Shown here piece after piece: positions 12,149-32,142 of a DNA stretch of 64,000 nucleotides. Where the stretch lies: positions 132,215 to 196,214 of the forward strand of contig JBPXJS010000011.1 in assembly GCA_051715425.1 (NCBI GenBank), in the 5' to 3' direction. How positions within the stretch are numbered: the stretch's first letter is position 1; each line of letters starts with the position of its first letter. The notes beneath the pieces are model-generated. The model was not told the DNA's origin. It searched no databases and saw only the letters and a list, made by a program, of their open reading frames with translations. A program made the translations under genes and the position numbers. Source of the DNA: Bacteroidota bacterium. Its GTDB lineage: Bacteria > Bacteroidota > Bacteroidia > UKL13-3.

Positions 12149-12197
12149 TGGGGGAAGGATGTTATGTTGAAATTGGTGTTTTTTTATTCAAATATGC

Positions 12198-13079: not shown

Positions 13080-13103
13080 CTATAAGTTCTGATGAGTTAA
13101 TTC

Positions 13104-13778
13104 TTACTGAAACCTAAAAACAATAGGTACTATAAGGCAGAAACTTTGGGGTATTCCATTGAGCTTAGGCGGACTTGAAAACTTCATTTTTCTAAGGACC
13201 CTTGCTGCTTCTTTATTCAGGGAAACATGATCTCCTTTTATAATGGCTATTTTTTCCATGGTTCCATTAACACTTAAGGTACATGATAAGATAACTCGCC
13301 CCTCAATACCATTTTCTCTGGCATAAACCGGATAATTTAATTTTCCGGACAAATATTCGCTAAATTTTTTTTCACCACCTGCCAAAACGGGTGCTGTATA
13401 TCCTAAAGAATCATTATCTTCAAATGTATTCACATATCCTGCATTAAATCGGTTAGCATTACAAGCGGTGTCCTTATAGTTCAACTCAAAATCAAAGTTC
13501 AGTTTTTCCAGCCCAAAGTTTGTTTCAATGTACCAGATGCCGAAAGGTTCACCATAATTATCCTCACATCTAATCGTGATATCTTTTTTAATATCCCGAA
13601 TTTCATTAAGGGTTCTTCCATCAAGCAGCTTGGTGGTGGTAAGGGAATAACTGGCTTTTTCTGCAGTTGTTTCTTTTCTCAGGTATTGGTCCTTATAATA
13701 AGTAGTTGTTTGGGCATAAACATGGAAACTAAATATAAACAGTAGAGCAATAAGGAATAGTTTGTTCATGTTTGGCAT
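13104..13778 (-). CDS. secreted protein with C-terminal TonB-C-like domain
   Basis: 224 aa. Signal peptide (…HVYAQ). C-terminal ENGIEGRVILSCTLSVNGTM...IIKG motif typical of the TonB C-terminal domain. Confidence 0.55.
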   Translation of the reverse strand: MPNMNKLFLIALLFIFSFHVYAQTTTYYKDQYLRKETTAEKASYSLTTTKLLDGRTLNEIRDIKKDITIRCEDNYGEPFGIWYIETNFGLEKLNFDFELNYKDTACNANRFNAGYVNTFEDNDSLGYTAPVLAGGEKKFSEYLSGKLNYPVYARENGIEGRVILSCTLSVNGTMEKIAIIKGDHVSLNKEAARVLRKMKFSSPPKLNGIPQSFCLIVPIVFRFQ

Positions 13779-14074
13779 GTTATGCTAATGGTTGATATTA
13801 ATAGAAAGGTAAAATTAAGGAAATGGGTTTGGGAAACAAAGAGGGATAACCAAAATCAAACCCTTAAACCGATGCAGAAAAGGACGCACCTGAAATTGAA
13901 AACCCATAAGGGATAACTGGAAAAGTCTTTCACCCAAAAAGCAACCGAAACACCCCGAAATATAACCAGATATGCATCCCGCTGCTTAAGCAGGATTCGT
14001 TTAAACCTTATGTGTTGGCGGCAGTTTTGCTTTCACCACGAAGCTGTCTCGGTTCAATTTTGAAGAGATGCTTA

Positions 14075-15259
14075 TTAATAGTAGTATCTAGTTAGTTGGG
14101 TAATTTTGTTGTTGTAAATTACTTTGCTCTCATACAGTAGTCCCTTTAAATTGTAACGGAAATAAGTTTCTGATTTGTTGTTCTTATTGTCAACTGAAAT
14201 TTCAGAAGTCAATTTCTCTTTTTCGTAAGTATAAAAGTAGTTGGTGCATGTTTCTGATGAATTCCTTATGGAGCATTCACTTGTGATTTGGTTTTTGCTA
14301 TTAAACTTTGTAACGATTTTATTTGTGCTGCTTCCAAATCTTGCTTCGGTATTATATATATTTGTTACGACTTTTCCCGAATCAGAATATTCAAATATTG
14401 TTGTAGATTCCCAGTAAGGAAGAATGGTCGTGAAATACCAACCAGTTGAATCAACTTGCTTAATTAAATTTCCGATGTTGTCGTAGTAATAATATTTTTT
14501 GGAATGAACTTTGCCTTCTTTTGTATACCAAATCCATGTTCTCACTTTCCCGTTTTCGTAATAAGTGTAATCATCGTTTAAATATCTTGGGTCACAATAG
14601 ATACACTTAACTGAACCTGTGTCGGGTTTGTAACTGCTGGTTGGTAAATACCTCGTGCTGTCTCTTGTGAAGTAGCGACTAATCTTCTGTCCTTTCTCAT
14701 TGTAATAGGTTTCGTAAATCTCAGCTTTTACTGAACGAAAATGGAAAGTGTCCTTTGTGTATTTTGAAATTGATATGTAGTCATCAAAATATTGAAAGCA
14801 ATCATAAGTTTGGTTTCCTAAGCTGTCATATTTGTATGTTGTAATGTTCTGATAAATGTTGTATCGAAGTGAACCATATTCTTTTCTTTTCTCTATGCCT
14901 AATGGGCTGTCAATGTCAATAACAACCCTTCCGTTTTTGTCATAGTAAGTTTGAAAGGAATACCAGGTCAAATATGAAGGTCCATGTGATTGAAAAACTC
15001 TATTGTATTTCTTGCCTGAAACTTTGCTACTATCTTTATCAAACACCTGTCTGTAAAGAAGTAAACTATCTTTTGAAACTTTGCCGTTCTTTTTTATTTG
15101 ATAGGAGTATGCCTCAATTTTCTTCACATTGTTTTTGATAAAGTCCTGATAAGTCCAACCCTGAAACTCGTCACCACTGAAACTGAAAATGGTATTGCTC
15201 ATTTGTCCGAACAGGTATGTTGTTGTCAGTGTCAATATGCTTGCTAAAATTAATTTCAA
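14075..15259 (-). CDS. MORN-variant repeat protein (YwqK-family antitoxin/immunity-like)
   Basis: 394 aa. Signal peptide, then Tyr-rich repeats of the YYENGKV / YYDKNGRV / YYYDNIGNL type. Confidence 0.5.
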   Translation of the reverse strand: MKLILASILTLTTTYLFGQMSNTIFSFSGDEFQGWTYQDFIKNNVKKIEAYSYQIKKNGKVSKDSLLLYRQVFDKDSSKVSGKKYNRVFQSHGPSYLTWYSFQTYYDKNGRVVIDIDSPLGIEKRKEYGSLRYNIYQNITTYKYDSLGNQTYDCFQYFDDYISISKYTKDTFHFRSVKAEIYETYYNEKGQKISRYFTRDSTRYLPTSSYKPDTGSVKCIYCDPRYLNDDYTYYENGKVRTWIWYTKEGKVHSKKYYYYDNIGNLIKQVDSTGWYFTTILPYWESTTIFEYSDSGKVVTNIYNTEARFGSSTNKIVTKFNSKNQITSECSIRNSSETCTNYFYTYEKEKLTSEISVDNKNNKSETYFRYNLKGLLYESKVIYNNKITQLTRYYY

Positions 15260-15472
15260 TGTCTGTCTGTTTTATGCAGTCCGTTCAGTGTTTGCAGGAC
15301 GCCCAAAAAATTGCAACCAATCGGGTCAGGCCGGGGAATTTCACCCTTACCTTCCAACGGGGGATGACTACGTCCGCGACAACTGGGGCAAGCCAAGTTG
15401 CTTTGTCAAGGTCGTTTTCAGTCGCAAGATTTTTATAATATCGTTTTAGTCCTCTTTGCTTCTTCATTAAAG

Positions 15473-15817
15473 TCAAATTTGATAACTGATTTTCAAAGTA
15501 TCATTTATTTTGTCCGTTAGCATTTCAACTAGTTCTTCATTCATAAATTCATAGTCGTCCGCAATATTTAGAATTTCAATTATTGGCAACTCCAAATGTT
15601 TGTAAAGCCCCCAAATTTTTGCTCGTTGTCCCGGTTCCATTACAAAAACCAAGTCAGCCCAATTCAAATCATTCTCTGATATTTTCCTATCACTTTTTGG
15701 GCTAAGTCCAGCTGAACGAATATTGAAACGATTGTCATTTTTAAAAATGTGTTCCGCTGTCCTGCTACGCTTTTTATTTCGTCCACAAACTACAAGTATG
15801 TTAGGTCTTTCTGTCAT
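15473..15817 (-). CDS. low-molecular-weight protein-tyrosine-phosphatase / ArsC-like family protein
   Basis: CX5R(S) P-loop (VCGRNKKRS) near the N-terminus. Start chosen at MTERPNILVV; the ORF track extends to 15856. Confidence 0.6.
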   Translation of the reverse strand: MTERPNILVVCGRNKKRSRTAEHIFKNDNRFNIRSAGLSPKSDRKISENDLNWADLVFVMEPGQRAKIWGLYKHLELPIIEILNIADDYEFMNEELVEMLTDKINDTLKISYQI

Positions 15818-15979
15818 TGTTGTTGGTCGTCTTAAAATTGGGCATAACGGTGGCAATATGGCCTGAAAGGGATTGCGGAGAACGTCCCTATCAACTTACA
15901 ACGAAATTGATGCGGCTGATGAGCTTCGCATACCACTAAAGCCCTTTTGGGCTATATTGCATGTTGTACACCATTTATT

Positions 15980-16483
15980 TTATACTATTTTTCCTACTTT
16001 CTTTAAATAAATAATCAATCCACCAAGTAAAATGCCTAGGCCAATAAAAAAGTATCCACCATTTTTATCTTTACAACCGCGCATAAAATAGGGTTTCCCA
16101 TCTTTATCAATGAATTGGATCAGTCTATTCAATCTATTATCTGTCTCTTTTGGATCTTCATCAAAATACACAACAATCTCATCTCCAACTTTCAAATCAT
16201 CTATTTTTTCTAAATGTGGTTTAAAATCACCAAAATCCTTTCCAACAAATATTGTAAAAACCTTGGAGTAATTATCAATTAATAAATATCTAAATTTACC
16301 AATATGTCGTAATGGCAATTCTTCGAAAGTCTTATCGAGAAAGACTATCCTACCTGTCAACTGGTTAAATTCAGTTTTATCTTTTGTCCCACGAATCATA
16401 ATAATGGAACCTAAAATCAAGATTGTAATTATACCAGCTATCGATTTTTTAAATATTGGATATTGTCGCTTTGTATTCATCAA
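15980..16483 (-). CDS. hypothetical membrane protein
   Basis: 167 aa with N- and C-terminal TM helices. Confidence 0.45.
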   Translation of the reverse strand: MMNTKRQYPIFKKSIAGIITILILGSIIMIRGTKDKTEFNQLTGRIVFLDKTFEELPLRHIGKFRYLLIDNYSKVFTIFVGKDFGDFKPHLEKIDDLKVGDEIVVYFDEDPKETDNRLNRLIQFIDKDGKPYFMRGCKDKNGGYFFIGLGILLGGLIIYLKKVGKIV

Positions 16484-16787
16484 TCAAATATTTTTCTTAT
16501 TAGTACGCTGAGTTCTTTTTTAAATGGTGTACAACGGCAGACTCCCGCAATCATGCGGGACAAGTTGTGAAATAAGCTATCCACAGCCCTGTATGTAAAT
16601 GTTGGAATAAAACGTCACAAATGCAAGATAAAAAAGCATCACCTTAGATTGAAAACCATAAGAAATAACTGGAAAAGTCTTTCACCTAAAAAAGCAGCCG
16701 AAACTTCCCTGCATGTTGCTGGGCGGGCATCAAACATAGCTCAAATCGAAGTAAAACTTCGTTTGAACCTTATTTGTTGCAGTTTTG

Positions 16788-17558
16788 TTATTCGCCATTA
16801 TCGTCATCATTATATTCGTCAACATTATTTTGGTTTTTGAAACCAATTATTTTTGTCAAGCCATTATTTTTTACGTTGAAAGTCTTAAATTCGATTTTAT
16901 CCAGTTCATTTATTTTTAAATTTAATTGCTCCTTTGTCAAGAGTTTAAGGTTGTAAAGCCAGACCAAATTATTATACAGTTGGTCGTAGGGCAAGTATTC
17001 ATTAAGGGTGGAGTATTTGCCAACTAGATATTTATCGCGTCTTTGTAACAATTCTTTTATAAATTCATCAACACTTTGTTTGTATCGCTTCGTCCCGATA
17101 AATTCTATTGCATTTGTATTATCTGATTGTGTAAGATGAATAGTGTTTTTCTTTGTTATCAGATATACAATTAAAAAAAATACACTTGTTGTTAAGTGAA
17201 ATATTTCAGCGCCATTTCCCACGTGTCCACCATCAAGTCTTTTAAAAAAAACTGAAATAGCAATGATTAGAAATAAAAGGGATATAACTAACCAGAGTAG
17301 CTTTCGTGATTTTTCAATAATAATTTTTGAACCTATGTCTTCAAAATCAACAAAAGTATCAGAGCTTGAAGCTATTCTTTTCTTAATAAGCCTTAATCCA
17401 GTGTCTTCAATTATATATTTGAATCTATCGAAATTTGTGTCAAACTGTTTGAATTCCATATTTGAAGGTGTCATTAAAATTGCAACTAACGTCAGACGGT
17501 GAAATAAACTATCCACAACCTTGTTTGTAAATGTTGCAATAAAACCCCAAAAATGCAA
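16788..17558 (-). CDS. hypothetical membrane protein
   Basis: 256 aa with two central TM helices and an acidic C-terminus. The first ~25 codons overlap repeat D, so the true start may be the internal Met near 17474. Confidence 0.45.
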   Translation of the reverse strand: MHFWGFIATFTNKVVDSLFHRLTLVAILMTPSNMEFKQFDTNFDRFKYIIEDTGLRLIKKRIASSSDTFVDFEDIGSKIIIEKSRKLLWLVISLLFLIIAISVFFKRLDGGHVGNGAEIFHLTTSVFFLIVYLITKKNTIHLTQSDNTNAIEFIGTKRYKQSVDEFIKELLQRRDKYLVGKYSTLNEYLPYDQLYNNLVWLYNLKLLTKEQLNLKINELDKIEFKTFNVKNNGLTKIIGFKNQNNVDEYNDDDNGE

Positions 17559-17647
17559 GTGAAGGCAGGATTAAGTTTCCTGTAATCTCAGATTGAGTTA
17601 AACAAGACAATACTGTAACTTACCCTATCCCACTCTGTTCGAGCATT

Positions 17648-17860
17648 TCACTTTTTATGCAGCTCAACATTTTCAATATCTGCTGTCGTTAAGTGTTCGT
17701 TGTCTAAAAGAATAAGATATGTTGAATTAACAACTCGTCTGTCCGTTAAAACTTGTCCATTTTTAAGGGTAACATTTACTACTTGGTAACCCATACCTTG
17801 TTCAGGTAAATCAGCAAGTTTGTCAATTAAGTTTGTTGGTAATTCAACTTTTTCAGTCAT
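17648..17860 (-). CDS. small 'GMGYQ'-domain protein
   Basis: Start taken at MTEKVELPTNLIDKLADLPEQGMGYQ..., which sits 1 nt after the stop of the upstream paralogous gene. The ORF track gives a longer 17648–17959 ORF. Confidence 0.45.
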   Translation of the reverse strand: MTEKVELPTNLIDKLADLPEQGMGYQVVNVTLKNGQVLTDRRVVNSTYLILLDNEHLTTADIENVELHKK

Positions 17861-17861
17861 A

Positions 17862-18548
17862 CTAATATGGTTTTCGTTCAATGTAAGTTCCATCTGAAGT
17901 TCCGTTGTCAAAAAGTGCTTCAATGCCACCACCGTTATGATTGTTGGCTGGTTGAACAATCCCAGATTTGTATTTGTCGTAAGATTTTGGTTTTACAAAA
18001 AATGCCCACTTAATCGTCTCATCGTTTGGCAATGCATATCTGTCAATAGGGTCATCGTTGTATCTTTTACAAGCGAGATAGTCTGCTTCGGTGGTAGTAT
18101 AAGTTCCATCTTTCAATCTCATTTTCACGAAGTCAATTCTTTTATCGTCAGCATACGCTGAAAGCCGAACAAAAAGGTCTGTCCCGTTTGCATAGATTGG
18201 AGCATTGTCAACAGCACCAGTACCGCCAGAGTGTCTCCCCTTGGTGTTCATATTACTTTCCGACAACATTCGCACATTGCTTAATGCAGAACGTCTTACT
18301 AAAGTTGGGCTTTCCAAAGTAATGAAATCTGATTGGCTGAACATTCTTGTGTAGCTCTCATTAACAATTTGTTTTTTGTATGAGGCAAAATTGCTGTCAT
18401 AGTCAACAATTAGTTCGCTGTTGTAAACAATGAACCTGTCAGTTGTATAACGTCCTTGTCTTTTAGCGTCAATAATTTGGTAACCCATTCCTGACTCAGG
18501 TAATGAGAGAAGCGATTGTGTAAATTGCGATTGTGCTTTAAAAATCAT
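17862..18548 (-). CDS. hypothetical protein with N-terminal 'LPExGMGYQ' domain
   Basis: 228 aa. The N-terminal ~50 aa are paralogous to the downstream small protein (LPESGMGYQIIDAKRQGRYTTDRFIV vs LPEQGMGYQVVNVTLKNGQVLTDRRVV). Confidence 0.55.
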   Translation of the reverse strand: MIFKAQSQFTQSLLSLPESGMGYQIIDAKRQGRYTTDRFIVYNSELIVDYDSNFASYKKQIVNESYTRMFSQSDFITLESPTLVRRSALSNVRMLSESNMNTKGRHSGGTGAVDNAPIYANGTDLFVRLSAYADDKRIDFVKMRLKDGTYTTTEADYLACKRYNDDPIDRYALPNDETIKWAFFVKPKSYDKYKSGIVQPANNHNGGGIEALFDNGTSDGTYIERKPY

Positions 18549-18756
18549 TTTTCTATTTTTTAATTGTTACTAATTTTTTGTCCGTTTTCCTTATTGTGCT
18601 GTGTCGTAGTAGCCTTGCCGCCAACGTCAGACTGTGAAAATACTAAAAAACTAACCCTTTAGAATCGAATATTCGAAAAATCTTCAGATGGGTATCCGAA
18701 TATATCAGCATGGAATTCTAGTTTTTTCACAACCTAACGTTTTGCAGCTACCCGAA

Positions 18757-18870
18757 GGTGGCGATTTCGAAGCACTTCACTGTCAACCAAGCACAAGCTT
18801 TGATAGATGCACAAAGCTTCATTTAACCACTGAACCGCCACTTTTGGGTAGGTGCTGTTATAAGCCGTTT
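18757..18870. repeat. repeat B copy (3'-of-gene module)
   Basis: ggtggcgatttcgaagcac...gcacaaagcttcatttaaccactgaaccgcc. Homologous copies at 22170–22272, 24030–24150, 28001–28125 and 29410–29530. Confidence 0.8.
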
Positions 18871-19830
18871 TTATTTGTTGAATTGTGGGTCGAAATTGTC
18901 ATAAAAATGAGAGCAAATGCCAGATTTGTTTATGATTTTAAGAACTTTCATCATTCTAACATGATGGTCATGGTCGTGGTCATGTTGTCCAAGAGTCATT
19001 TCTTTTTCTGCGTCAACCGACAGAATTGAATGCAACGAATGTGGTGCTGGATGTCCTGGCATATCTCCAAGCCATTTTCCAATCCATTGAATTTCACCAA
19101 CAACATTATTTGCTACTTTCCAATCTTCAATTCTGTCGTCTACCCATCCGTGTAATTTCCAAAAAGTCGGATGAACATGGCTTGAATATGTGTCACCAAG
19201 CCAGTCATAATTTGGGTCGTCCCATTTAGGGTCAATGTTTGTTGAAAATTCGTCTGGGTCAGGTCTGATTTCGTCTATCTGTGAACAAAATCTCATATGC
19301 AACCAGTTGTGAATTGTAAATTCTAGTCTAGCACCCAATTCGCCTAATGACACCGTCTTCAAATAGCCTTTGTCGGTAAATTGAGTTTCTAACGGTTTAA
19401 TCCTTTGATTATAAAAGTCATCTGATTTTACATTTCTCAAATAATCATTTAAACCTTGGTCACCTGTTTCCCAAGTTGGAGGAACAGGATATTCACTATC
19501 ATTAGGAGTAGGAATTGATTTCCATCCTTCAACTTTTGGATAGGTTGCATCTCCAATTTCTCGAAGTCTTTGATTAACACTTGCAATCATAACTCTGTGC
19601 ATATATAAAAAATCTTCCCCCGAGTTGTTAGATACATCTAGTTGTCTCGGATTTGAGTTTCTTACATAAGCAGGTCTTGGCGGCTCCCAACCTAGCTGTC
19701 TAATTTGATTTCTTTCACTGTCGGAATATAGCCACCAGCTATTTCTTACTTGATGCCATAGGTAGTGATGAAGTCTGTGGTCGTGTGACGCCATCATCGT
19801 AATAATATGTCTTGGTAATTTGTTGCTCAT
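18871..19830 (-). CDS. hypothetical His/Trp-rich protein
   Basis: 319 aa with HDHRLHHYLWH and HDHDHDHH motifs. 25 bp downstream of the Fic gene. Confidence 0.55.
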   Translation of the reverse strand: MSNKLPRHIITMMASHDHRLHHYLWHQVRNSWWLYSDSERNQIRQLGWEPPRPAYVRNSNPRQLDVSNNSGEDFLYMHRVMIASVNQRLREIGDATYPKVEGWKSIPTPNDSEYPVPPTWETGDQGLNDYLRNVKSDDFYNQRIKPLETQFTDKGYLKTVSLGELGARLEFTIHNWLHMRFCSQIDEIRPDPDEFSTNIDPKWDDPNYDWLGDTYSSHVHPTFWKLHGWVDDRIEDWKVANNVVGEIQWIGKWLGDMPGHPAPHSLHSILSVDAEKEMTLGQHDHDHDHHVRMMKVLKIINKSGICSHFYDNFDPQFNK

Positions 19831-19854
19831 ATTCTTCTGATTTTTGTAGATTTT

Positions 19855-20955
19855 TTATTCCCTGATAAGTGCTGTGAAAATGTCATTAAGGCTTTTTCCA
19901 TTTCCTTGTCGTGCAGTTTGTAATGCTTTGTAGTATTCTATTCGTTCAATTTTTTCAAATGTAACGTCTTTGTCAAGCAAGTCTTTAAATTGAATTGAAG
20001 CTAAAACTCTTGCTATTCTTCCGTTGCCGTCTAAGAATGGATGTATTGTTAAAAACTTCTCGTGAAATGTTGCAATTGCAGTTATTTTATTGTCATCCGA
20101 ACCATAAGCTACCTTCATAAATTCATTTCTCCACCATTCTAATAATTCAAAAGTTAAAGAAGGAACGTCTGCTGGTGATACTGGAACAAAGTCTGCACTT
20201 TCCTTTTCTTGACCAGGACTACCAATCCAAACATCTAATTTTCTAAAGCCTAAGAGACTATGATATTCTTGCCCTTGGGTTTCCATTAAAATTGTCTTGT
20301 GAAGAACAAGGAGGTCTTCAATTGATAGTCTAGATGAAAATTTCACACCCGCAATAGGTAACGAGGATAATTTAGAATAACCAAAGTCACGCGAATAAAT
20401 TTGTCCTGCGAGCTTATTTGTTACCTTGTTTAATTCTGCAAGTGCATTTTTAATTTCATCGAAGTTTTGCTTTAAGTCGAGATGAGAACTTAAAAAAGAT
20501 ATTTGTTCTGCTTTATTTAGTTCAATACCTAAATATTCTAGTCTTACACCATAGCCTTTGGGGCTGTCAAGAATACCACAAACACTTTCTCCGTGTAGGA
20601 TTACTGTTTTGAATGTTCTATTTTGACAAAGAGTGATTCTTTCACCGGGCGTAATTTTTTGATTTGTAACAAAAACGAAACCTTGAGCATTATTTTTAGT
20701 CACGCCCAAAATGTCTCTTTCAAATTTTTCTTGAATGTCTTTAAACTCCTTTTGTCCATTTGGGAAATAACAGCCAACAACAAATTTTTCTCCTTCTTTA
20801 TAACAGATAATATCTTTTGTTCCATCAGGTCCACCCACAGGACTTTGAGGGTCAATTTCTTGGTAACCTTCAATTCCAATTACTTTAGCAGCCATTCTTT
20901 CCGCAAATGCCTGTCCTTTGTCCCAGTTGATTAATATTTGATATGTATTTGTCAT
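19855..20955 (-). CDS. Fic/DOC family protein
   Basis: Canonical Fic motif HPFLDGNGRIAR in the C-terminal half. ~200-aa N-terminal extension. Confidence 0.85.
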   Translation of the reverse strand: MTNTYQILINWDKGQAFAERMAAKVIGIEGYQEIDPQSPVGGPDGTKDIICYKEGEKFVVGCYFPNGQKEFKDIQEKFERDILGVTKNNAQGFVFVTNQKITPGERITLCQNRTFKTVILHGESVCGILDSPKGYGVRLEYLGIELNKAEQISFLSSHLDLKQNFDEIKNALAELNKVTNKLAGQIYSRDFGYSKLSSLPIAGVKFSSRLSIEDLLVLHKTILMETQGQEYHSLLGFRKLDVWIGSPGQEKESADFVPVSPADVPSLTFELLEWWRNEFMKVAYGSDDNKITAIATFHEKFLTIHPFLDGNGRIARVLASIQFKDLLDKDVTFEKIERIEYYKALQTARQGNGKSLNDIFTALIRE

Positions 20956-21208
20956 TAGTTACGGTGTCTCTTTAAAATGGCTTATAACTCATAAATATAC
21001 GCAATGCACAATTTAGTATTCGCACAAATTCAGTAAGTTATCTATTGCGCTTTTTTAATATTTATTTTCCTTCACAAACGTGTATAAACATTTATACCCG
21101 TTTATACCCATTTGAACACGTGTACACCTCCACGACCTTCCCTAACCTCCTCATCAAAATCAAAAGAGCGAAATACTCTATTTTCGTGGTATGGTATAGG
21201 AATTATAT

Positions 21209-21799: not shown

Positions 21800-22100
21800 A
21801 CCTACCACAAACCTCCCCAACCTTCCCATCAAAATCAAGAGTGAAAACACTCTTTTTTCATAGGGAAAACATTCTTTTTTTTGGAAGTGCCTAACGGGTG
21901 TTTGGCGGCTGTAAGTATTGTATTTATTAGCAAATAGGGCAAAATGGAGGCAAATGGCCAATTTTTTTTCCGAAACCCCTGTTTTAGTTTGTGAAAGGGG
22001 AGAAAGGGTTTGCTAAGGTGAAAATTGGAAGAAAATTTGGTGGTGCTTTTAAGGAGATTTGGGAGCATAAAATGATCTGTTTATATGTCGGTATTTGAGG
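21800..22100. repeat. repeat A copy 1 (~300-bp 5'-of-gene module)
   Basis: acaaacctccccaacc(c/t)tcccatcaaaatcaagagtgaaaacactcttttttcataggg...ggcaaaatgg...gtgaaaggggaga... Contains hairpin aagagtg-aaaa-cactctt followed by a T-run. Other copies at 27680–27990 and 30735–30895 (truncated), plus a degenerate copy at 21120–21200. Confidence 0.85.
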
Positions 22101-22169
22101 TCAAAGCTTACGCGGATGATATGTCTTTAGGTACGACTTTAAACTATTTGGATAGTTGCAATGAGAGAA

Positions 22170-22272
22170 ACTTACAAGCACTGTACTTTATACGAAGCAC
22201 AAATGTTCATTTAATCACTGAACCGCCAATTTCTTGTAAGTTCAGTTAGCTGCTGTGGTTCTATCTCGTGTC
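22170..22272. repeat. repeat B copy
   Basis: ...tacgaagcacaaatgttcatttaatcactgaaccgcc...agctgctgtggttc. Directly 3' of the stop of gene 22276–23994. Confidence 0.8.
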
Positions 22273-22275
22273 ATT

Positions 22276-23994
22276 TTATGCGTCAATTTCTTCATCTGTT
22301 TCTATTGTTACTGGGTCAATTTGCAGTTGATGTTGTTCCCATTCAAGTTGTTTTTGCTTGTCGTTTGAGATAGCTTGTTCAATAGCTAAACTTTCTCTGT
22401 AATGTCGTGCCTCTGCCACCATTGTCCACTTTGCGTTAATGTTCATACTCTCTACTTCCGCTTTAATGTCTGCAAGTGTTACTTTGAAAAATTCTTTTCG
22501 CGGGTTTACTTTATTCATTTGTAGTCGCAGGAATTTCTTGTGTAATTCTCTTTCAAGTCCTGGAGCATTGTCGCTAAATATCATTGAATGGACATCAAAC
22601 TCAAATGGAACGCTCGCATCTCCTAATTCTTTCACTCTGTCAAGAGGTTCAAGTCGTCTTGTCATTCCGATTTTATAAACGTTTTCCCCGAAAGAACCAA
22701 TGTTAGAAATAATATAAACGTTTCCAGATTTTGTCTGTTGTGCCATTGATATTGCTCGTTGATTTTTGTCTTCCGCAATTTTTAATTTTCCTTCAAGTTC
22801 TCTTAATTTTTCTTCGTATTTAGATTTTTGGTCTTCGCTTGCTTGTGCTACTTCTTTTTGAACTTTTTCAATCAGTTTCTTTAAAGTTTCTTCTTCTTTT
22901 TGAGCTTCTTTTATTGCTCTTTCAAAATCTCTTCGGGCTTTTTCTTCTTCTCTGATTTGTTCTTTTATTCTTCTTTGTTCTTCTTGTTCTTCCCATTTTA
23001 ATTCTTGGGCAATAACAGCCCATTTCAATTCGTCTATTCTTGCGTTTAAATATTCTTGTGTTATGATTGCATTACGAAACGCTTTACCATTATTGTTTAC
23101 AACTTGGTAAGCATCTTTAATTTTTTGTTCTAATGTTCCGTAATTGTCTTTTTTTACTTTTGAAAGTATGGAGTCAACTTTACCATTAAATGCGTCAAGG
23201 ATAAAATTGATTGCAGTTTCTTTTCGATTTGCTTCTACATAATCACATTTGGCAGATGTCCCGTTTTTAATCATTAAACGAGTTTTTTCTCTTGAAAATT
23301 TTAATTTTTCTCCTGCTTCCGTATGTCTAAATTCTTCTGCTAAATCGTCAAGTAGACTGTAAGTTGGGATTAAGTATCTGTCGCCATAACCCTCAATAAT
23401 ATTCTTCATTGCCTTTGCAGTTTTTTCTAGTTCAGTTGCATTTTGCATTGCTTTGTATGCATCACCTGCAATTTCTTGTGCTTTCTTGTCTGCTCGTTCA
23501 ATAATTAGTTTAGCTTCTTTCGTAGCATTGTCTAATTGTGCAACTGCATTTTGTTTAAATGCAGTTGCATCAATATTTGCTTGTGTCTTAATTGTATTTG
23601 CTGAAATAGAAGCTTGGTCAAGTTCTTTCTGTGCTTGCAATTTTAGTTCATTGGCTTCTGAAGTTGCAGTGTCGAGTTGTTGTTTAGCGTTATCAATAAT
23701 TGAGTTTGCATTTTTTTCTGCATCTGAAAGAATTTCCTTTGCTTTCAGTTCTGTGTCAACAATACCTTGATATTTATTTAATGCTGCATTTTTTTGTTCA
23801 AGGTCTGAAACTTGCCCAATTAGAACAATACTATTTTGTTTTAGGTCTGTAAGTTGGTCGGATAAATTTTTTCTTTCCTTTTCATTAAAAGCCAAACTGT
23901 TTGTCAAGTCGTTAATAATAGTTTGTAGTTTCTTGCGGTTTGTAAGCCAAAGAATAGCTAAAATGATTATTACTATAATTAAAATTGCAGTCAT
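22276..23994 (-). CDS. DUF4041 domain protein with C-terminal T5orf172 (GIY-YIG-like) domain
   Basis: 572 aa. N-terminal TM helix, long coiled-coil, then GNVYIISNIGSFGENVYKIGMTRRLEPLDRVKELGDASVPFEFDVH, characteristic of T5orf172/MUG113. Confidence 0.75.
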   Translation of the reverse strand: MTAILIIVIIILAILWLTNRKKLQTIINDLTNSLAFNEKERKNLSDQLTDLKQNSIVLIGQVSDLEQKNAALNKYQGIVDTELKAKEILSDAEKNANSIIDNAKQQLDTATSEANELKLQAQKELDQASISANTIKTQANIDATAFKQNAVAQLDNATKEAKLIIERADKKAQEIAGDAYKAMQNATELEKTAKAMKNIIEGYGDRYLIPTYSLLDDLAEEFRHTEAGEKLKFSREKTRLMIKNGTSAKCDYVEANRKETAINFILDAFNGKVDSILSKVKKDNYGTLEQKIKDAYQVVNNNGKAFRNAIITQEYLNARIDELKWAVIAQELKWEEQEEQRRIKEQIREEEKARRDFERAIKEAQKEEETLKKLIEKVQKEVAQASEDQKSKYEEKLRELEGKLKIAEDKNQRAISMAQQTKSGNVYIISNIGSFGENVYKIGMTRRLEPLDRVKELGDASVPFEFDVHSMIFSDNAPGLERELHKKFLRLQMNKVNPRKEFFKVTLADIKAEVESMNINAKWTMVAEARHYRESLAIEQAISNDKQKQLEWEQHQLQIDPVTIETDEEIDA

Positions 23995-24029: not shown

Positions 24030-24150
24030 TTGCAGTCTGCTACTATGCAACTTTTATTTTAATGAGGTGGTGATTTCGGAACGCCATACTTGATACGAAG
24101 TAAAATGCTCATTTAAACACTGCACTGGCTATTTCTTCTGTCTATAAGAT
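24030..24150. repeat. repeat B copy
   Basis: ggtgatttcggaacgccatacttgatacgaagtaaaatgctcatttaaacactgcactggc. Confidence 0.75.
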
Positions 24151-24163
24151 TTTGAGTTGTAAT

Positions 24164-25180
24164 TTACACTGTTAGGTTTATTTTGTGCCGTTTCCCGTTT
24201 AGTAAAAAGTCAATTTGTATTTTGTTGTGAAGTATAATTTCAAGATGTCCAAAGTCAAACTCTTTATGATGATTTGGACAAAGTAAAATTATGTTCTCAG
24301 GTGTTTCTCGTCCTTTTAAGTATTTGGCTTTTATGTGTGCAGCTTCAATATACTTGCTTCCGTTTTTTTTCATTATTGTAGTAGAACAAATTTGGCATTT
24401 AAAGTCCCGGAGAATTTTTATTTGTGTTATTGTTTTGTTGTCGCGTTTATATCTTTTGTGATTGACAATAATTTCTTCAGGGTCGTTGTCCTTTAGATTC
24501 TTTAGGTCTTTTAGAATGTCTGCCTTTGATTTATTCTTTTTGAAGTATATTTCAAGTTCGATTTGTTCCTTTTCGTCATTTGAAACAAAGGTCAATTGAA
24601 ACTTTTTACCTGTATAGTATTCATAAATAGATAAAAGTTTCTTAAAATCTATTTCGTTTGTTCCAACTTTCGATAATTCAGTTAATTCGTCAAAAAGTAT
24701 ATGTTCAGCGAATTTATCATCTTTATAGGTGAAACCAATTTGCCCAACCATTCTTTCACTTGAATTGTCTTTGTAATTGTTCGCGTCAAGTGGTAAAGGA
24801 AATAAAATTGAAAAATCCCTTTCGGCCTTGATGTTTGCCCAATAAGCATTCTTTTGAAATGCAGTCGGAAGTTTTCTTGCTTCATTAAACGTTTCCGCTT
24901 TGCCATATACTCCAACAATTTGTCCTTTGTTTTCGTCAGTGTTCCTTGTGTAAAATATTATGAGTCCGCCCTTTTCGAATTTCACTGGAGCATTTTTCCA
25001 TTTAACGAAACCGTTTATAAACTTTTCGGTGTCAACTGCTTTTTTGTTGAAGTTGAAATTTAATGATTCACCACCAACATTGTCTTGAGCGTATTTATGC
25101 CCTGCTTTAGGATTTATATAGCTGTTGTTTCTCCAACCAAATGGATTCCAAGTAATGTTTGCGATTATTATTTTACTCAT
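24164..25180 (-). CDS. HNH endonuclease with N-terminal PUA/EVE-like domain (putative modification-dependent restriction enzyme)
   Basis: C-terminal HNH (CQIC...AHIKAK...LLCPNHHKEFDFGH). N-terminal beta-barrel-like signature GGLIIFYTRN...GQIVGVYGKAE resembling EVE/PUA. Confidence 0.6.
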   Translation of the reverse strand: MSKIIIANITWNPFGWRNNSYINPKAGHKYAQDNVGGESLNFNFNKKAVDTEKFINGFVKWKNAPVKFEKGGLIIFYTRNTDENKGQIVGVYGKAETFNEARKLPTAFQKNAYWANIKAERDFSILFPLPLDANNYKDNSSERMVGQIGFTYKDDKFAEHILFDELTELSKVGTNEIDFKKLLSIYEYYTGKKFQLTFVSNDEKEQIELEIYFKKNKSKADILKDLKNLKDNDPEEIIVNHKRYKRDNKTITQIKILRDFKCQICSTTIMKKNGSKYIEAAHIKAKYLKGRETPENIILLCPNHHKEFDFGHLEIILHNKIQIDFLLNGKRHKINLTV

Positions 25181-25184
25181 TTCG

Positions 25185-26378
25185 TTAATTTTGTGTTGCT
25201 ACAATAGTTAATGTTGTTCGCTGGAGTTTTGCCAAATCGTTCATTGTTTGAGTAAATACTGTACGTGCATGTTCATAATTGTAGTTACACAACAAAAGAA
25301 TAACGGGACCTTTTCCTTGCCATATCTCAGAGTACTGTGAAACCTGTCCTTTTGCTCGTTGAATTGCTCCCGCACTTGAATCTCTTTTCATCTCTATCAA
25401 AATGGTGTCATTCACTACAATATCTGCTCGTCCTCTGCCTGCCTTATCAGCAATAGGGTACTCTAATTCAATTGATGCACCTGGCAAATGCTTTTTCAAA
25501 TGGCGGTATAACCTGTCTTGATACTCGTACTCGTAGTATGCTCCTTTGGGATGCCAATTTTGTAAAGCAATCACAAAGTCATTAAAGAGGTTTGAATTGC
25601 TTTTTGCAATAACAGCACTTACTTGTTCCTCTTGTTTTGCATTAATGACTAATTCACTTTCCACTTGAGTTTGGATAGTTGCAGCTTGGTTAGTGTATTT
25701 TGAATCCGCTTTATTTTTATAATCAAAAAGTTGTCGCAGTTCTGATTTGATTCGTATAAATATCTGTTGATCTCTTTTGTAGAGATAAAATAAGATTGCT
25801 ACACCAAACAGAATAGCAACCCAGTAGTAGTGGTTTGTAAATCTTTCGAACTCACGGAAAGATGAAAGTCGTATGTTGAACAAATTTTCAATCGGCTTGC
25901 GAACAAAAACAGATAAATTTTGAAACGCTTTCCAACTGATACCACCAACAAATAAAACTCGTCCAATTTTGTAGATGTTCTCATTTTGTCCGTTTTTCTT
26001 GGTTACTTCAATTTCATCTTTCATTATTTCGTAGTAAGTTAATAATCTAGATTTTGCTCTTTCCCAAGTCCAGTTGCCTTTGTCGTCACGCCATGAACCT
26101 ATAAAAGCAAGAACAATTACTAAGGTGAAAAGGAGAAAGATTAATGTTGAATAGTAGGTCAGTCGATCAGAGTCAACACCGAGTAGCTCGTCAAGAAGCG
26201 GTGCAATTATTAAAACCCATACGCTACCCCAAATAGAAAATTTTATACGTTTGCCATAAAGTTTACGATCTATGTTATCAACTGTATCAAATAGTTTAGT
26301 AACGGCAGTCTGAGTCTGCACTAAGGTTAAGTTTAAATAATCTTTAGCCCCTTTTTGTTGTTCGGTCATATTGTCCAT
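25185..26378 (-). CDS. membrane-anchored protein with C-terminal PD-(D/E)xK (Mrr-like) nuclease domain
   Basis: 397 aa with 3–4 TM helices in the N-terminal half. C-terminal ...RADIVVNDTILIEMKRD... (D...E-x-K). Ends 5 bp before the EVE–HNH gene. Confidence 0.5.
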   Translation of the reverse strand: MDNMTEQQKGAKDYLNLTLVQTQTAVTKLFDTVDNIDRKLYGKRIKFSIWGSVWVLIIAPLLDELLGVDSDRLTYYSTLIFLLFTLVIVLAFIGSWRDDKGNWTWERAKSRLLTYYEIMKDEIEVTKKNGQNENIYKIGRVLFVGGISWKAFQNLSVFVRKPIENLFNIRLSSFREFERFTNHYYWVAILFGVAILFYLYKRDQQIFIRIKSELRQLFDYKNKADSKYTNQAATIQTQVESELVINAKQEEQVSAVIAKSNSNLFNDFVIALQNWHPKGAYYEYEYQDRLYRHLKKHLPGASIELEYPIADKAGRGRADIVVNDTILIEMKRDSSAGAIQRAKGQVSQYSEIWQGKGPVILLLCNYNYEHARTVFTQTMNDLAKLQRTTLTIVATQN

Positions 26379-26552
26379 TTTAAAATTGTTTATTTGAGCT
26401 TGTTGTATGATGTAAGCACAGCAGTCAATGCTTTCATTATAGCTTGAGGTCTTTCAACACTGAAGTTTTGTTTATAATGGTTTGCCTGAAAGGCGCTGAC
26501 CCAGCTGTAGCGAATTACTTCCTTAAGATGGTTTACATTGCTCAGTCATTTG

Positions 26553-27581
26553 TCAGCCAGTTATTTTTTTTAACTCGTCCACCAATAGTTTACTTTCCAT
26601 TTTAGATAGATAAGGTGTCTTTAAGGTTCTTGCCCAAAAGAATCCGTGCTCCAATAATTCTGTCACTTTGTAGAATGGCAGATAGTTTGTAATTCCATTT
26701 TCTTTGCTTGGGGGTTTTGTAAGCCATTTAACACTAACAAAACCTTCGTCATCGTCTAAGTCCTCATTGTATTCTTCTTTAGTATTAGTGAGCACTTCAC
26801 CTGCAGCGATAATTCCATGATGTTTATGAGAAAGGAAAACAATGTCCCCCTTTTTTAAATAGTAAGCAAAGTATGCTTGTCCTCCATAGGCTGAAGCTCT
26901 TTTTTTATTAAGCATATCCCATACACAGTCTTCGTTGTAAGTTCTATTTGTATCTAGGATTACGCCTTTTTGTTGGTTTGGATTAATGTGTGTATCGTGA
27001 GGTTTCGCGAAGAATTCAAAGTATAATTCATTACCAAGACTATAAATCCTATAAGGAATGAACTCAACTGAAAGTCCTTTAGTTTTCCAATATGTCAAAG
27101 ATTTTGCTAACGTCTCGTTAGCGGCACTTCCAACAACATAAAGATGTTGGTTTCTGTTAAACTCTGCTGGAGTTAATGCCCTGTCAAGTTGGAAGTCCTC
27201 TTTGTGAGCATCCAAAAGCTCCTTTTCAGGATTTTGTTTTTTGAAATAGTAATTTAATTTGTCATAACCCCATTGCCCAGCGGTTTGTGTATAACGTAAA
27301 ATTTGAACCATAGCATCGTCACCAACTACACCACGCTTTAATTCAAAAATTACAAGGTCTCCCTTTTCTGTAACTGCATAGATGTCCGCTTCGCCTTGAA
27401 AACTTCTTTCTTGGTGGATTGGCATTAATGCGTTGTCTTCGAAAAGTTTATTCAATAAATTATTAGCAAGTAGATTTTCTAGATCCTTTTCGATTTTGCT
27501 TAACTGGGAAAAGTCGTAAAACGGCAGTGGCTCCAGCCCGTTAGGGGTATTGTTGTTTTCAAGTGATAATTTGTATAGCAT
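26553..27581 (-). CDS. PD-(D/E)xK nuclease fused to C-terminal EVE domain (putative type IV restriction endonuclease)
   Basis: N-terminal GEADIYAV...GDLVIFELKRG (D...ExK). C-terminal KKGDIVFLSHKHHGIIAAGEV matches the EVE GDLVFFYHS...GIVGIAEV core. Confidence 0.6.
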   Translation of the reverse strand: MLYKLSLENNNTPNGLEPLPFYDFSQLSKIEKDLENLLANNLLNKLFEDNALMPIHQERSFQGEADIYAVTEKGDLVIFELKRGVVGDDAMVQILRYTQTAGQWGYDKLNYYFKKQNPEKELLDAHKEDFQLDRALTPAEFNRNQHLYVVGSAANETLAKSLTYWKTKGLSVEFIPYRIYSLGNELYFEFFAKPHDTHINPNQQKGVILDTNRTYNEDCVWDMLNKKRASAYGGQAYFAYYLKKGDIVFLSHKHHGIIAAGEVLTNTKEEYNEDLDDDEGFVSVKWLTKPPSKENGITNYLPFYKVTELLEHGFFWARTLKTPYLSKMESKLLVDELKKITG

Positions 27582-27679: not shown

Positions 27680-27990
27680 ACCTCCACAAACCTCCCCAAC
27701 CCTCCCATCAAAATCAAGAGTGAAAACACTCTTTTTTCATAGGGAAAACATTCTCTTTTTTGGAGTGCCTAACGGGCGTTTGGCGGCTGTAAGCCATGTA
27801 TTTATTAGCAAATAGGGCAAAATGGTGGTAAATGGCCAATTTTTTTTCTGAAACCCCGGTTTTAGTTTGTGAAAGGGGAGAATGGGTTTGTTAAGGTGAA
27901 AATTAGAGGAAAATATGGTGGTGCTTTTAAGGGATCAGGGAGCATAAAAGATCTGTTTATATGCCGGTATTAGTTGTCAGAGCTCAACGT
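27680..27990. repeat. repeat A copy 2
   Basis: About 88–90% identical to 21800–22100 by inspection. Immediately upstream (5') of gene 26553–27581. Confidence 0.85.
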
Positions 27991-28000
27991 TTCTGGGGTT

Positions 28001-28125
28001 TAATAAGTTGGCAATTTCGGAGACAAAAACTGTCTGCCAGTAATAGACTTGATACTAAGCACAAAGCTTCATTTAAGTACTGAGCCCGCTTTTTTGCCTA
28101 ACCCGTGTTAGCTGCTTGTGCTTCT
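28001..28125. repeat. repeat B copy
   Basis: ggcaatttcggagacaaaaactgtctgccag...ctaagcacaaagcttcatttaagtactgagcccgc...agctgcttgtgcttctgtc. Confidence 0.8.
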
Positions 28126-28131
28126 GTCACG

Positions 28132-29335: not shown

Positions 29336-29409
29336 TTTATTATTTGTTTAAATAGTTTTTATGAGGTTTGATAGCATAGCAGCTAACGGTTTGCAACTAC
29401 AAGAAGTTG

Positions 29410-29530
29410 GTGATTCCGGAGCACAAAACTGTCTACCAGCACCAAGCTTGTTACGAAGTACAATACTTCATTTAACCACTGACCCGTGAATTTCTTGTAG
29501 GTGCTTTTAGCTGTAGTGCTTCTTCTCATT
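29410..29530. repeat. repeat B copy
   Basis: ggtgattccggagcacaaaactgtctaccag...ttacGAAGTAcaaTACTTCatttaaccactgacccgtg...agctgtagtgcttcttctc. Confidence 0.8.
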
Positions 29531-29541
29531 GTCGACTAAGT

Positions 29542-30734: not shown

Positions 30735-30895
30735 TTGCAAACACAATACAAACCTCCCCAACCCTCCCATCAAAATCAAGAGTGAAAACACTCTTTTTTC
30801 ATAGGGAAAACATTCTTTTTTTTTACAGAGCCTAACAAGCGTTTGATGGCTGTAAGCATTGATTTTATTAGAAAGCAGGGCAAAATGGGAGCAAA
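30735..30895. repeat. repeat A copy 3 (truncated)
   Basis: The first ~160 bp match the other copies (caaacctccccaaccctcccatcaaaatcaagagtgaaaacactc...) and then diverge. Confidence 0.8.
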
Positions 30896-30977: not shown

Positions 30978-31071
30978 GAATGGAATGTTGAATGCTGAAT
31001 TTTGAATGTTAAATTTTAAATGTTAAGTTAGGATATTGCGCTTCCCGGAATTTTATTGGTTTGGAAGTTTA
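30978..31071. repeat. single inverted 'F' unit (right island boundary)
   Basis: Reverse complement of the 11181–11608 unit (…gaatgttgaatgctgaattttgaatgttaaattttaaatgttaagttaggatattgcgcttcccggaattttattggtttggaagtt). Confidence 0.85.
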
Positions 31072-31099
31072 TTTTCATAGTTCTACTTCATTCTACCTG

Positions 31100-31560
31100 C
31101 GCCTCAACCTTTGCGTCTTATGCGTCTCTGCGAGAGTCATTGCCTGTTCCGCAACGCAAGAGTCAAGGCTCGCTTGTCCATTGCAGGCGTTAATATCTTA
31201 AACAAAATTCGTGAATACAATTTGTGGAAATTTCATGCCTTCGGCTTGACAGGCGCGGCTTGGTTTGGTCATTGGTCATTGCCTGTCTCGCTATTGCGGG
31301 AGTCATTAGTCAATGCCTGCTTTGCTATTGCTGGAATCATTTTAAAATAAATCTGTGGCTAACCCGCGCAAGTCTTCTCAAAAAATCATCTGTGGAATCT
31401 CATGCCTTCGGCTTGACGCGTGTGGCTTGATTTGGTCATTTGTCAATGGGCATTGGTCATTGGACAATGGTTAATGATTAGTTTTTCTCGCAAGTCTTCT
31501 CAATAAATAAATTCGTGTTCATTTCATGCCTGCGGCTTGACAGGCGTGGCTTATTAGTGG
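31100..31560. repeat. cluster of inverted 'E' repeat units (right island boundary)
   Basis: Three units of gcaagtcttctcaa...aattcgtg...atttcatgcct(g/t)cggcttgacaggcg(t/c)ggc. 31140–31270 is a near-exact reverse complement of 10620–10750. Confidence 0.85.
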
Positions 31561-31596
31561 GTATTACCTAAGCACTGTGCACCACGCACTAAGCAC

Positions 31597-32142
31597 TCAT
31601 TTAACAGTAGTGGAGTCTTTCTTTTTGAAGTCGAGGGAGAGGGAGTTTACGCAGTAGCGGAGTCCGGTTTTATCTTGTGGGCCATCGTTGAATACGTGTC
31701 CGAGGTGGCCTCCGCATTTGGTGCATGTAATTTCTATGCGGGTCATGCCGTGGCTGTTGTCCATTTTTTCGGTGATTTTGGTTTTATCCAGGGCTTCATA
31801 AAAACTGGGCCATCCACATCCTGCATCAAACTTGGTGGCCGATTGAAACAACTCATTACCACAGCCTGCACAGGTATAAACACCCGGTTCCCAGTGGTCT
31901 TCAAACTTACCGGTAAAGGGACGTTCTGTTCCTTTCTCGCGTAATACGGCATATTGTTCTGGTGTGAGTTGTTTTTTCCAGTCGTCTTCGCTTTTTACTA
32001 TTTCAAATTCAGCCATGGTATCAGTTTTTAATGAGTTTGGTGTTTTTGCTGTTTCCGCTGGCTGATTTGATTTGCAGCCAGTATAAGCCAGGGTGCAGAT
32101 GCCCAAGGCCAGTAATAATAATTTCGTTTTTAGTTGTTTCAT
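31597..32142 (-). CDS. msrB: peptide-methionine (R)-S-oxide reductase MsrB
   Basis: Two CxxC zinc motifs, the catalytic Cys and the GTERPF/HLGHVF signatures. The ORF-track start encodes a lipoprotein-like signal peptide but overlaps the upstream gene by 122 bp. The alternative ATG at 32016 (MAEFEIV...) would give a cytoplasmic form. Confidence 0.85.
   Translation of the reverse strand: MKQLKTKLLLLALGICTLAYTGCKSNQPAETAKTPNSLKTDTMAEFEIVKSEDDWKKQLTPEQYAVLREKGTERPFTGKFEDHWEPGVYTCAGCGNELFQSATKFDAGCGWPSFYEALDKTKITEKMDNSHGMTRIEITCTKCGGHLGHVFNDGPQDKTGLRYCVNSLSLDFKKKDSTTVK

Follow-up and report, generated by a model that had tools for sequence, protein, structure and literature searches.

PD-λ-1 was found in 2022 in a functional screen of the Escherichia coli pangenome and defends E. 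coli (Vassallo et al., PMC9519451), and in 2026 it was renamed SNIPE (Saxton et al., Nature; PMC13190303). According to the latter study, E. coli SNIPE is a single-pass inner-membrane protein with its N-terminus out and its C-terminus in, and its cleavage of phage DNA occurs during injection. Defence is lost with the substitution E414A and with deletion of the domain DUF4041, which binds DNA and probably the tape-measure protein, while a variant devoid of its transmembrane (TM) helix is a toxic nuclease that cuts the chromosome. Plasmid transformation is not affected, and the N-terminal region is hypervariable and probably an adaptor (PMC13190303). Here, we describe a SNIPE-family gene (22276..23994, minus strand), and the repeat that flanks it (repeat B), in a 64-kb stretch of contig JBPXJS010000011.1 from a member of the Bacteroidota; the whole stretch is referred to as the window.

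Integron cassettes of Vibrio are known to carry defence genes, and in the same study the Bacteroidota are counted among the clades "previously found without any integrons" (Darracq et al., 10.1101/2024.07.02.601686). According to IntegronFinder 2.0, Bacteroidetes have only In0 elements and one Salinibacter integron. The window very probably holds a SNIPE-type antiviral nuclease in an orphan integron-like array, with decayed sites on both sides of the nuclease gene. The flanking repeat is a much more interesting lead than the protein alone, which is of modest interest. We give about even chances to the reading that repeat B, an attI-like hairpin and an insertion-less IntI/XerA-like recombinase make up a previously undescribed and widespread integron-like gene-capture system of the Bacteroidota that stockpiles anti-phage genes. 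No description of a Bacteroidota cassette system, site or array was found in the literature searched, most subscription journals being outside the scope of that search.

The SNIPE-family protein

The gene starts with ATG and comprises a 572-aa open reading frame (ORF), in agreement with the preliminary description of this DNA. The PADLOC profile PDLC03976 for PD-Lambda-1 matches aa 112-550 along profile positions 38-484 of 491 (379 bits, E=7.2e-114), leaving aa 1-111 outside the match, and a second PD-Lambda-1 profile, PDLC03977, matches with E=1.7e-112. In Pfam, DUF4041 (PF13250, already labelled "SNIPE" in the Pfam labels of the protein collection) matches aa 264-319 along profile positions 2-56 of 56 (55.3 bits, cutoff 27; E=6e-15). 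This DUF4041 core (23038..23205, minus strand, as are all features of the protein) belongs to a folded domain of about aa 187-312. The C-terminal GIY-YIG-type nuclease domain (aa 425-517, 22444..22722) is matched by T5orf172 (57.8 bits, E=1.7e-15) and, overlapping it, by MUG113 (65.3 bits, E=7.5e-18), as had been recognised at the outset. The signature positions of the GIY-YIG superfamily (GIY, YIG, Arg, Glu and Asn) are retained in it; whereas members of that superfamily are mostly soluble, the domain in the window protein would be tethered to the membrane via about 400 aa of helices and DUF4041.

The TM helix that had been proposed at the N-terminus is supported by hydropathy: aa 1-19 are the sole hydrophobic segment, with a mean Kyte-Doolittle value over 19 residues of 2.66 (threshold >1.6), and the predicted anchor, aa 2-19, is followed by NRKK (23938..23991). 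SNIPE proteins are defined by an N-terminal TM helix within the first 70 aa, and 59% of 474 homologues have one TM helix (PMC13190303). In E. coli SNIPE the TM helix likewise begins about four residues from the N-terminus in the layout MTQT-TM-KRIKK. The peptides of E. coli SNIPE used here were taken from primers in PMC13190303, namely oDS30 and oDS47 for the TM deletion and oDS92/93 for the E414 region. In the latter, MIYSEDAPSL-E414-KKLHDVF of E. coli aligns with MIFSDNAPGL-E481-RELHKKF of the window protein, which marks E481 (codon 22552-22554) as the predicted catalytic Glu.

Conservation points to the same parts of the protein. Across 39 relatives of 29-63% identity, Y427, K441-I442-G443, T445, R446, R447, E481, N494 and a KEFF motif are kept, and the nuclease domain is the best-conserved part. 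F269 of DUF4041 is invariant in relatives of that same range, and F269, N270-V273 and further DUF4041 columns are invariant in close homologues. The family counts 3182 representatives at 50% identity, and a near-identical cluster member of the window protein is MBU3660377.1.

In an AlphaFold2 model (mean pLDDT 70.9), aa 2-75 and 81-184 are helical, aa 187-312 make up a mixed helical domain, aa 313-421 form one very long helix and aa 426-491 a β-β-α-β-α core. The helical region of aa 20-186 (23437..23937) is the variable, putatively adaptor-like part. The charged helix that links DUF4041 to the nuclease (aa 313-421, 22732..23058; modelled as helices 313-384 and 387-421) is the counterpart of the SNIPE "downstream α-helix" (PMC13190303). 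The earlier impression of about 350 aa of coiled-coil thus holds for the long helices at aa 2-75, 81-184 and 313-421 but not for aa ~187-312, which is the folded DUF4041 domain. That this architecture is functionally uncharacterised, as was also stated, is out of date, since it is the architecture of PD-λ-1, with defence reported in 2022 (PMC9519451) and the SNIPE mechanism in 2026 (PMC13190303).

The window protein and E. coli SNIPE have in common an N-terminal TM helix with a basic patch, DUF4041 in the centre, a long helix, a GIY-YIG nuclease at the C-terminus that has the catalytic Glu, and the organisation as a one-gene system. They differ in that the window protein is about 80 aa longer, with the extra length all in N-terminal helices of unrelated sequence, that it is carried in an integron-like array, and that it is known here from its sequence. 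Since every hallmark of SNIPE that can be read from a sequence was found, the window protein is, on these grounds, a distant Flavobacteriales member of the known and mechanistically characterised SNIPE (PD-λ-1) family. Both family membership and the conservation of all functional elements are established by these comparisons.

Proposed function and alternatives

By analogy with E. coli SNIPE, the single N-terminal TM helix would fix the protein in the inner membrane and leave the remainder in the cytoplasm, and this tether would keep the GIY-YIG nuclease out of reach of the chromosome. On injection of DNA by a long-tailed phage, DUF4041 may bind the entering DNA and the tape-measure/injection apparatus, and the nuclease, with E481 as catalytic residue, would cut the phage DNA at its point of entry. 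Such a mechanism would provide direct immunity and not abortive infection. The poorly conserved N-terminal helices (aa 20-186) could act as a host- or phage-specific adaptor, one that would have to differ from the ManYZ-binding region of E. coli. We infer activity, topology and phage range in this host from the same analogy.

Several observations weigh against this proposal. The nuclease domain is modelled at low confidence (pLDDT ~40-60), and a Foldseek search of the PDB with the full-length model returned only insignificant coiled-coil matches; the nuclease domain was unusable in this fold search because it is too poorly modelled. NCBIfam holds no model for the SNIPE-family protein. Siphoviruses are the only phages affected by E. 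coli SNIPE (PMC13190303), and Bacteroidota do not have ManYZ, the partner used for λ. As the Flavobacteriales host is without ManYZ, the adaptor at the entry site must differ from that of E. coli, and we would expect the inner-membrane partner to be another protein. The combination of a long N-terminus of unrelated sequence with a host without ManYZ offers a useful test of whether the N-terminus and DUF4041 set phage specificity.

Other functions have to be weighed against direct immunity. A nuclease that is released or activated to degrade host and phage DNA, so that the infected cell dies, would be an abortive-infection or toxic effector. This mode is common to many defence nucleases, no immunity gene adjoins the SNIPE gene, and TM-less SNIPE is highly toxic and cuts host DNA. 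It is nevertheless improbable here, since infected E. coli cells carrying SNIPE survive and divide, radiolabelled phage DNA is cut during injection, and host DNA brought to the membrane causes no added toxicity (PMC13190303). The conservation in the window protein of all functional elements of E. coli SNIPE argues in the same direction. GIY-YIG domains are found in homing endonucleases and T5orf172 is named after an ORF of phage T5, and given the mobile-cassette context of the gene one may speculate that a selfish, homing-type endonuclease or a cassette-stabilising "addiction" nuclease maintains or spreads the array. We regard this as very improbable: neither a TM anchor nor DUF4041 is a feature of homing endonucleases, the SNIPE gene interrupts no host gene, homologues are found in many contexts that are not arrays, and the tested member of the family is a defence protein. 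Finally, JGI homologues bear names such as "DivIVA", "chromosome segregation ATPase" and "YoxC", and DivIVA and ATP-synt_B match the N-terminal helical region, as would be expected if the protein served as a coiled-coil structural protein of the membrane, of the DivIVA, SMC or ATP-synthase-b type, and its nuclease-like domain were degenerate and inactive. These matches are below threshold and confined to low-complexity helices, however, the nuclease domain is the best conserved part with its catalytic residues intact, and the gene is an accessory one within a low-GC island, so that this alternative is scarcely credible.

Genomic neighbourhood

The SNIPE gene lies within a run of about 13-20 kb of co-oriented accessory and defence genes, a stretch with a GC content of 0.32-0.38 against 0.40-0.45 around it that is bounded by an SDF symporter gene and msrB. 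Its neighbours encode an HNH protein, a 397-aa membrane protein, a PDC-S11-like protein and a SoFic-like Fic protein; proteins with tails for the type IX secretion system (T9SS) are also encoded in the window. The neighbourhoods of close homologues (69-90% identity) were compared. One homologue (P0002) is accompanied by SMODS and SLATT_4 in a run of small co-oriented genes, another (P0008) by PD-(D/E)xK, IS21 and GmrSD/HNH genes, a third (P0012) by TIR/SEFIR, DUF4365-Piwi and JAB/ThiF genes, a fourth (P0049) by a serine recombinase and a fifth (P0013) by housekeeping genes. The association with defence islands that had been proposed is thereby corroborated by the SoFic-like, HNH and PDC-S11-like genes in the window and by the SMODS/SLATT, TIR/SEFIR and DUF4365-Piwi genes elsewhere. 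The check on homologous neighbourhoods proposed together with it showed these to be often defence-rich and to differ in their genes among close homologues.

Because close homologues have unrelated neighbours, SNIPE is a stand-alone one-gene system in neighbourhoods that are often rich in defence genes. Joint action of SNIPE with the adjacent HNH, 397-aa and PDC-S11-like genes was considered and rejected on the same observation, the neighbours of close homologues being entirely different. In the P0049 homologue (L134-L136), which is 85% identical, SNIPE is truncated at 463 aa, inside the nuclease domain, and the 3' end of the gene overlaps a convergent gene for a large serine recombinase, which suggests that a mobile element inserted into this SNIPE gene.

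Repeat B in the window

Repeat B is present in five copies of about 145 nt in one orientation (nhmmer E 4e-43 to 7e-10), all on the minus strand, and these are referred to by position as c18, c22, c24, c28 and c29. Three are intact: c18 (18731..18881; 128 and 136 bits), c28 (27982..28131; 127 and 114 bits) and c29 (29370..29534; 142 bits), the last with a long imperfect hairpin (z=-2.7). Read in gene sense, from high to low coordinates, ORFs of 204 and 79 aa are followed by c29, ORFs of 104 and 303 aa, c28, another repeat (repeat A) with the PDC-S11-like, 397-aa and HNH genes, and c24. Thereafter come SNIPE, c22, repeat A with small ORFs and a 107-aa ORF, an attI-like site, the Fic and 319-aa genes, c18, and an ORF of 228 aa with others beyond.

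As in integrons, the outermost bases of neighbouring sites are related, and we denote the box that ends each site on the TAAC side R'' and the one on the GTTA side R'. The complement of R'' of c28, GTTAGCTGCT, is identical to R' of c29 (10/10), so that the boundary rule holds from c29 to c28. One cassette is bounded exactly by the attI-like site and c18 (18871-20955, minus strand) and holds two ORFs, for a Fic-domain protein (SoFic-like, E=3.4e-21) and for a 319-aa His-rich protein (HDHDHDHH) that matched no family. The attI-like site at its start (20976..21053, minus strand) contains cattgcgtatatttatga directly followed by GTTATAAGCC, and GTTATAAGCC is the exact complement of R'' of c18, GGCTTATAAC (10/10), a pair also seen as inverted repeat I12. 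The site matches a model of attI-like sequences with E=6e-6 and is identical at about 22 of 24 positions to the recombinase-adjacent site of a locus in another genome (L090). The hairpin of c18, with the plus strand as the folded one, is more stable than shuffled sequences (z=-3.8).

No recombinase gene or remnant was found in the 64-kb window by tblastn with eight array recombinases and a scan for the box-II motif, and the array is locally orphan, resembling the clusters of attC sites lacking integron-integrases (CALIN).

Bracketing of SNIPE by repeats, as previously described, is confirmed, with B at 22124..22273 directly 3' (c22), B at 24042..24162 on the 5' side between the HNH gene and SNIPE (c24), and A downstream at 21801..22108. 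Whether SNIPE still behaves as a cassette is another matter, and four observations speak against it. The two sites that bracket it are the most degenerate of the five. The site c22 (nhmmer 85-114 bits, positions 7-127 of 174 of the hidden Markov model, HMM) retains an intact R'' box, 5' arm and centre, is devoid of the 3' arm and folds no better than shuffled sequences (z=-1.2), and the strongly degenerate c24 (71 and 34 bits) has no stable fold, likewise no better than shuffled sequence. Second to this, R'' of c22 is not complementary to R' of c24. Homology with a 90%-identical relative is limited to the ORF with 3 nt before its ATG and 23 nt after its stop, up to exactly the start of R''; movement of SNIPE as an intact cassette between the window and this relative was rejected for this reason. 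Finally, B-derived flanks occur in three of eight homologue contexts, the other five being without B.

The gene sits in a cassette-like unit, as the preliminary description held, but with both sites decayed, the boundary rule not obeyed and B flanks in a minority of contexts. Because its flanking sites are decayed, SNIPE is probably no longer mobile as a cassette, and this copy is probably a fossilised cassette, cargo of the platform; SNIPE is not intrinsically tied to B.

Repeat B across the Bacteroidota

Repeat B was also under-interpreted at first: it is a real repeat, but not a local one, being an attC-like site conserved across the Bacteroidota. The 18-base core ACAANNNTTCATTTAANNACTGA was searched for in 185,579 species genomes and at least 119 loci were obtained, with about 17 chance matches expected by estimate. 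The counts for other genomes given here cover these at least 119 loci (L001-L119). They are almost all from Bacteroidota, in many families, and the platform is distributed over Flavobacteriales, Chitinophagales, Sphingobacteriales, Cytophagales and Bacteroidales. When the 119 were searched with an HMM of the five window copies, 118 contained full-length B, often at more than 100 bits.

Where a locus has several copies, all have the same orientation at a spacing of about 0.6-2.5 kb. An ORF on the opposite strand stops at a median of 7 nt from B in 95 of 133 copies, and the reverse arrangement is seen in 7 of 133. From this polar placement it follows that the unit is an ORF, its stop, B, and the next ORF. 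In gene sense, the consensus of B reads N6-TAAC, AG, an arm of 20 nt, a centre of about 70 nt, a second arm of 20 nt, AAAAC and GTTA-N6. The centre is nearly invariant (TTCAGTGGTTAAATGAAGCTTTGTGCTTCG...), and the arms come in four or more alternative versions, each of which pairs with its own partner. Double compensatory changes were found at 11 of 16 predicted stem pairs. In the alignment, 91.2% of cells pair versus 70.8% in shuffles, with none of 500 shuffles reaching the observed value; double-change cells number 231 versus 77 in shuffles, and any slid register pairs at most 41%.

The boundary rule was assessed by comparing the 10 nt up to and including AAC (R'') with the 10 nt from GTT onwards (R'), a complementary run of at least 9 nt being scored. 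Positions anchored by alignment were used, since anchoring by regular expression under-counted (34%). R'' of copy n was complementary to R' of copy n-1 in 62.5% of 64 adjacent pairs, against 1.8% for the R' of the same copy, 0% for R' of copy n+1 and 2% for random pairs (Mann-Whitney p=2e-18). This is the pattern expected, by analogy with integron cassettes, if units excise and insert as circles with the crossover between the G and the TTA of GTTA.

The array recombinase and the attI-like site

ORFs from all 119 loci were clustered in order to find recurrent families, and one family was dominant, a tyrosine recombinase (Phage_integrase with Phage_int_SAM_4) in 11 of the loci. It stands at the upstream end of the array in all 11 and is co-oriented with the cassettes in nine. 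A scan of metagenomes that started from the recombinase (L141-L170) gave nine B-positive loci, and all nine place the recombinase at the head of the array, which lies downstream and co-oriented in five and upstream and divergent in four. In one metagenome locus (L145, Ga0075163_10001521) co-oriented B sites are found on both sides of the recombinase, three upstream and two downstream; it could be two tandem arrays, or a recombinase gene inside an array.

The best model for the array recombinases is the NCBIfam model "XerA / integron integrase", at 184-213 bits (cutoff 220). On TIGR02249, "integron integrase", they score 179-209 bits (cutoff 265) in two pieces that skip positions ~180-238, which we take to be the IntI-specific insertion. 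In 10 of 11 loci, the interval from the recombinase to the first B holds the complement of the R'' of the first cassette, compared with 3-4% in two controls. A small hairpin and an AT-rich spacer always lie immediately on the 5' side of this attI-like sequence.

These results bear on the alternative that B is not a recombination site and instead a transcribed RNA element of 3' untranslated regions, such as a terminator, or a miniature inverted-repeat transposable element (MITE) with a preference for intergenic DNA. The location of B directly 3' of stop codons, its long hairpin and its nearly invariant centre of about 70 nt would suit such an element, as would a window devoid of a recombinase. 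The boundary statistics are difficult to reconcile with it, since the bases before TAAC complement those after GTTA of the upstream copy and not of the same copy (62.5% vs 1.8%). Arrays moreover have a tyrosine recombinase at their upstream end, the partner sequence of the first cassette is found in a distinct hairpin site by the recombinase in 10/11 loci, and copies keep one orientation per locus. Rfam, searched at E<=1 over 10-33 kb, had no family matching repeat A or B. We consider an RNA element or MITE to be an unlikely explanation for B.

Comparison with integrons

Relative to a classical integron in the sense of IntegronFinder, the platform has the cassette structure, with R'' of copy n complementing R' of copy n-1, although not at the two sites flanking SNIPE, and a primary attI-like site next to the integrase in 10 of 11 loci. 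The array recombinases, on the other hand, are devoid of the IntI insertion and score below the integrase cutoffs. In a classification of tyrosine recombinases this insertion is said to be incompletely conserved within the integron-like subgroup. The recombinase is mostly co-oriented with the cassettes (9/11), whereas in classical integrons it is divergent.

An attC site is an imperfect palindrome of 57-141 nt that lies 3' of the ORF of its cassette and has R'' (...AAC) and R' (GTT...) boxes, an L box and an unpaired spacer. Repeat B has TAAC...GTTA ends with an internal loop of 2 nt and 5 nt, measures about 140 nt from R'' to R', holds a 20-bp covarying arm with conserved mismatches and is placed in a polar manner 3' of ORFs. 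The nearly invariant centre contrasts with the variable terminal structure of attC, the arm carries conserved mismatches and not bulges, and the complementary R box is about 10 nt long against 7 in classical integrons. Shared with the sedentary integron "biobanks" of Vibrio (10.1101/2024.07.02.601686) are co-oriented and mostly short accessory or defence genes, a palindromic folded site with AAC...GTT ends after each gene, cassettes that carry the distal half of the upstream site, and a tyrosine recombinase with a distinct primary site at the head of the array. The array in the window may further be compared with recombinase-less arrays as described in 2016 (PMC4889954): it has five sites, one attI-like site and no recombinase in 64 kb, but its sites are of the Bacteroidota B type and not canonical attC, and two of the five are decayed.

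By analogy, the platform probably recombines folded single-stranded sites like integrons, with another integrase architecture and a site centre that is conserved in sequence. The putative anti-phage cargo in the window, that is the SNIPE, SoFic-like, HNH and PDC-S11-like genes, may be likened to that of Vibrio superintegrons. If confirmed, these findings would widen integron-type gene capture to include a major phylum in which standard tools and reviews report essentially none, and would imply that the IntI insertion is not required for integron-type recombination. The site of about 145 nt would then also serve as a simple sequence handle with which genomes and metagenomes of Bacteroidota could be mined for accessory and defence cargo.

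Other features of the array and the island

The three genes between c28 with its repeat A and c24 form one co-oriented unit on the minus strand (24164-27581). They encode the PDC-S11-like protein (E=3.8e-20), the 397-aa membrane protein, with a weak match to HSDR_N_2 (PD-(D/E)xK-like) at its C-terminus, and a 338-aa HNH_2 protein, and the HNH gene starts 5 nt past the stop of the 397-aa gene. It is possible that this trio is a three-gene defence system.

Downstream of c18, the low-GC stretch continues with small co-oriented genes on the minus strand (11609-18548; GNAT, TonB_C, LMWPc-like and several unknowns), which may be older cassettes with decayed sites. At 15832-15914, between two small minus-strand genes, the 3' half of B is present as a weak remnant (E=0.018). 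Several terminal B copies from genomes unrelated to one another (L032, L088, L009, L093 and L043) end similarly, in GT(C/T)AG(N)CTGTNNAAAAACTC and not in a variable R', and the tail of c18 in the window (18731-18760) reads GTTAGGTTGTGAAAAAACT; the shared terminal tail may be a conserved array-end or chromosomal target sequence.

Repeat A, of about 305 nt, sits at the 5' end of three cassette-like units. Copy 1 (21801..22108, minus strand), at the 5' end of the unit downstream of SNIPE, is 92% identical to copy 2 (27680..27984, minus strand), which directly follows R' of c28, and partial copies lie at 30748-30895 and 21126-21185. As part of the conserved B system repeat A was rejected, since it is strain-specific and none of the 119 B loci of other genomes contains it. 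Read in gene sense, its end is formed by a terminator-like hairpin, AGAGTG-TTTT-CACTCT, with TTGATTTTG and a G-rich tail after it. Possible identities of repeat A are a promoter or leader borne by the cassette, a small RNA gene and a small mobile element.

Adjoining msrB, the low-GC island has a non-coding upstream edge (31000-31600) that carries repeats unrelated to A and B. These comprise three imperfect repeats of about 150 nt that share (T/C)TCATGCCT(T/G)CGGCTTGAC...GGCTT, as well as short tandem arrays of 7-, 14- and 34-nt units.

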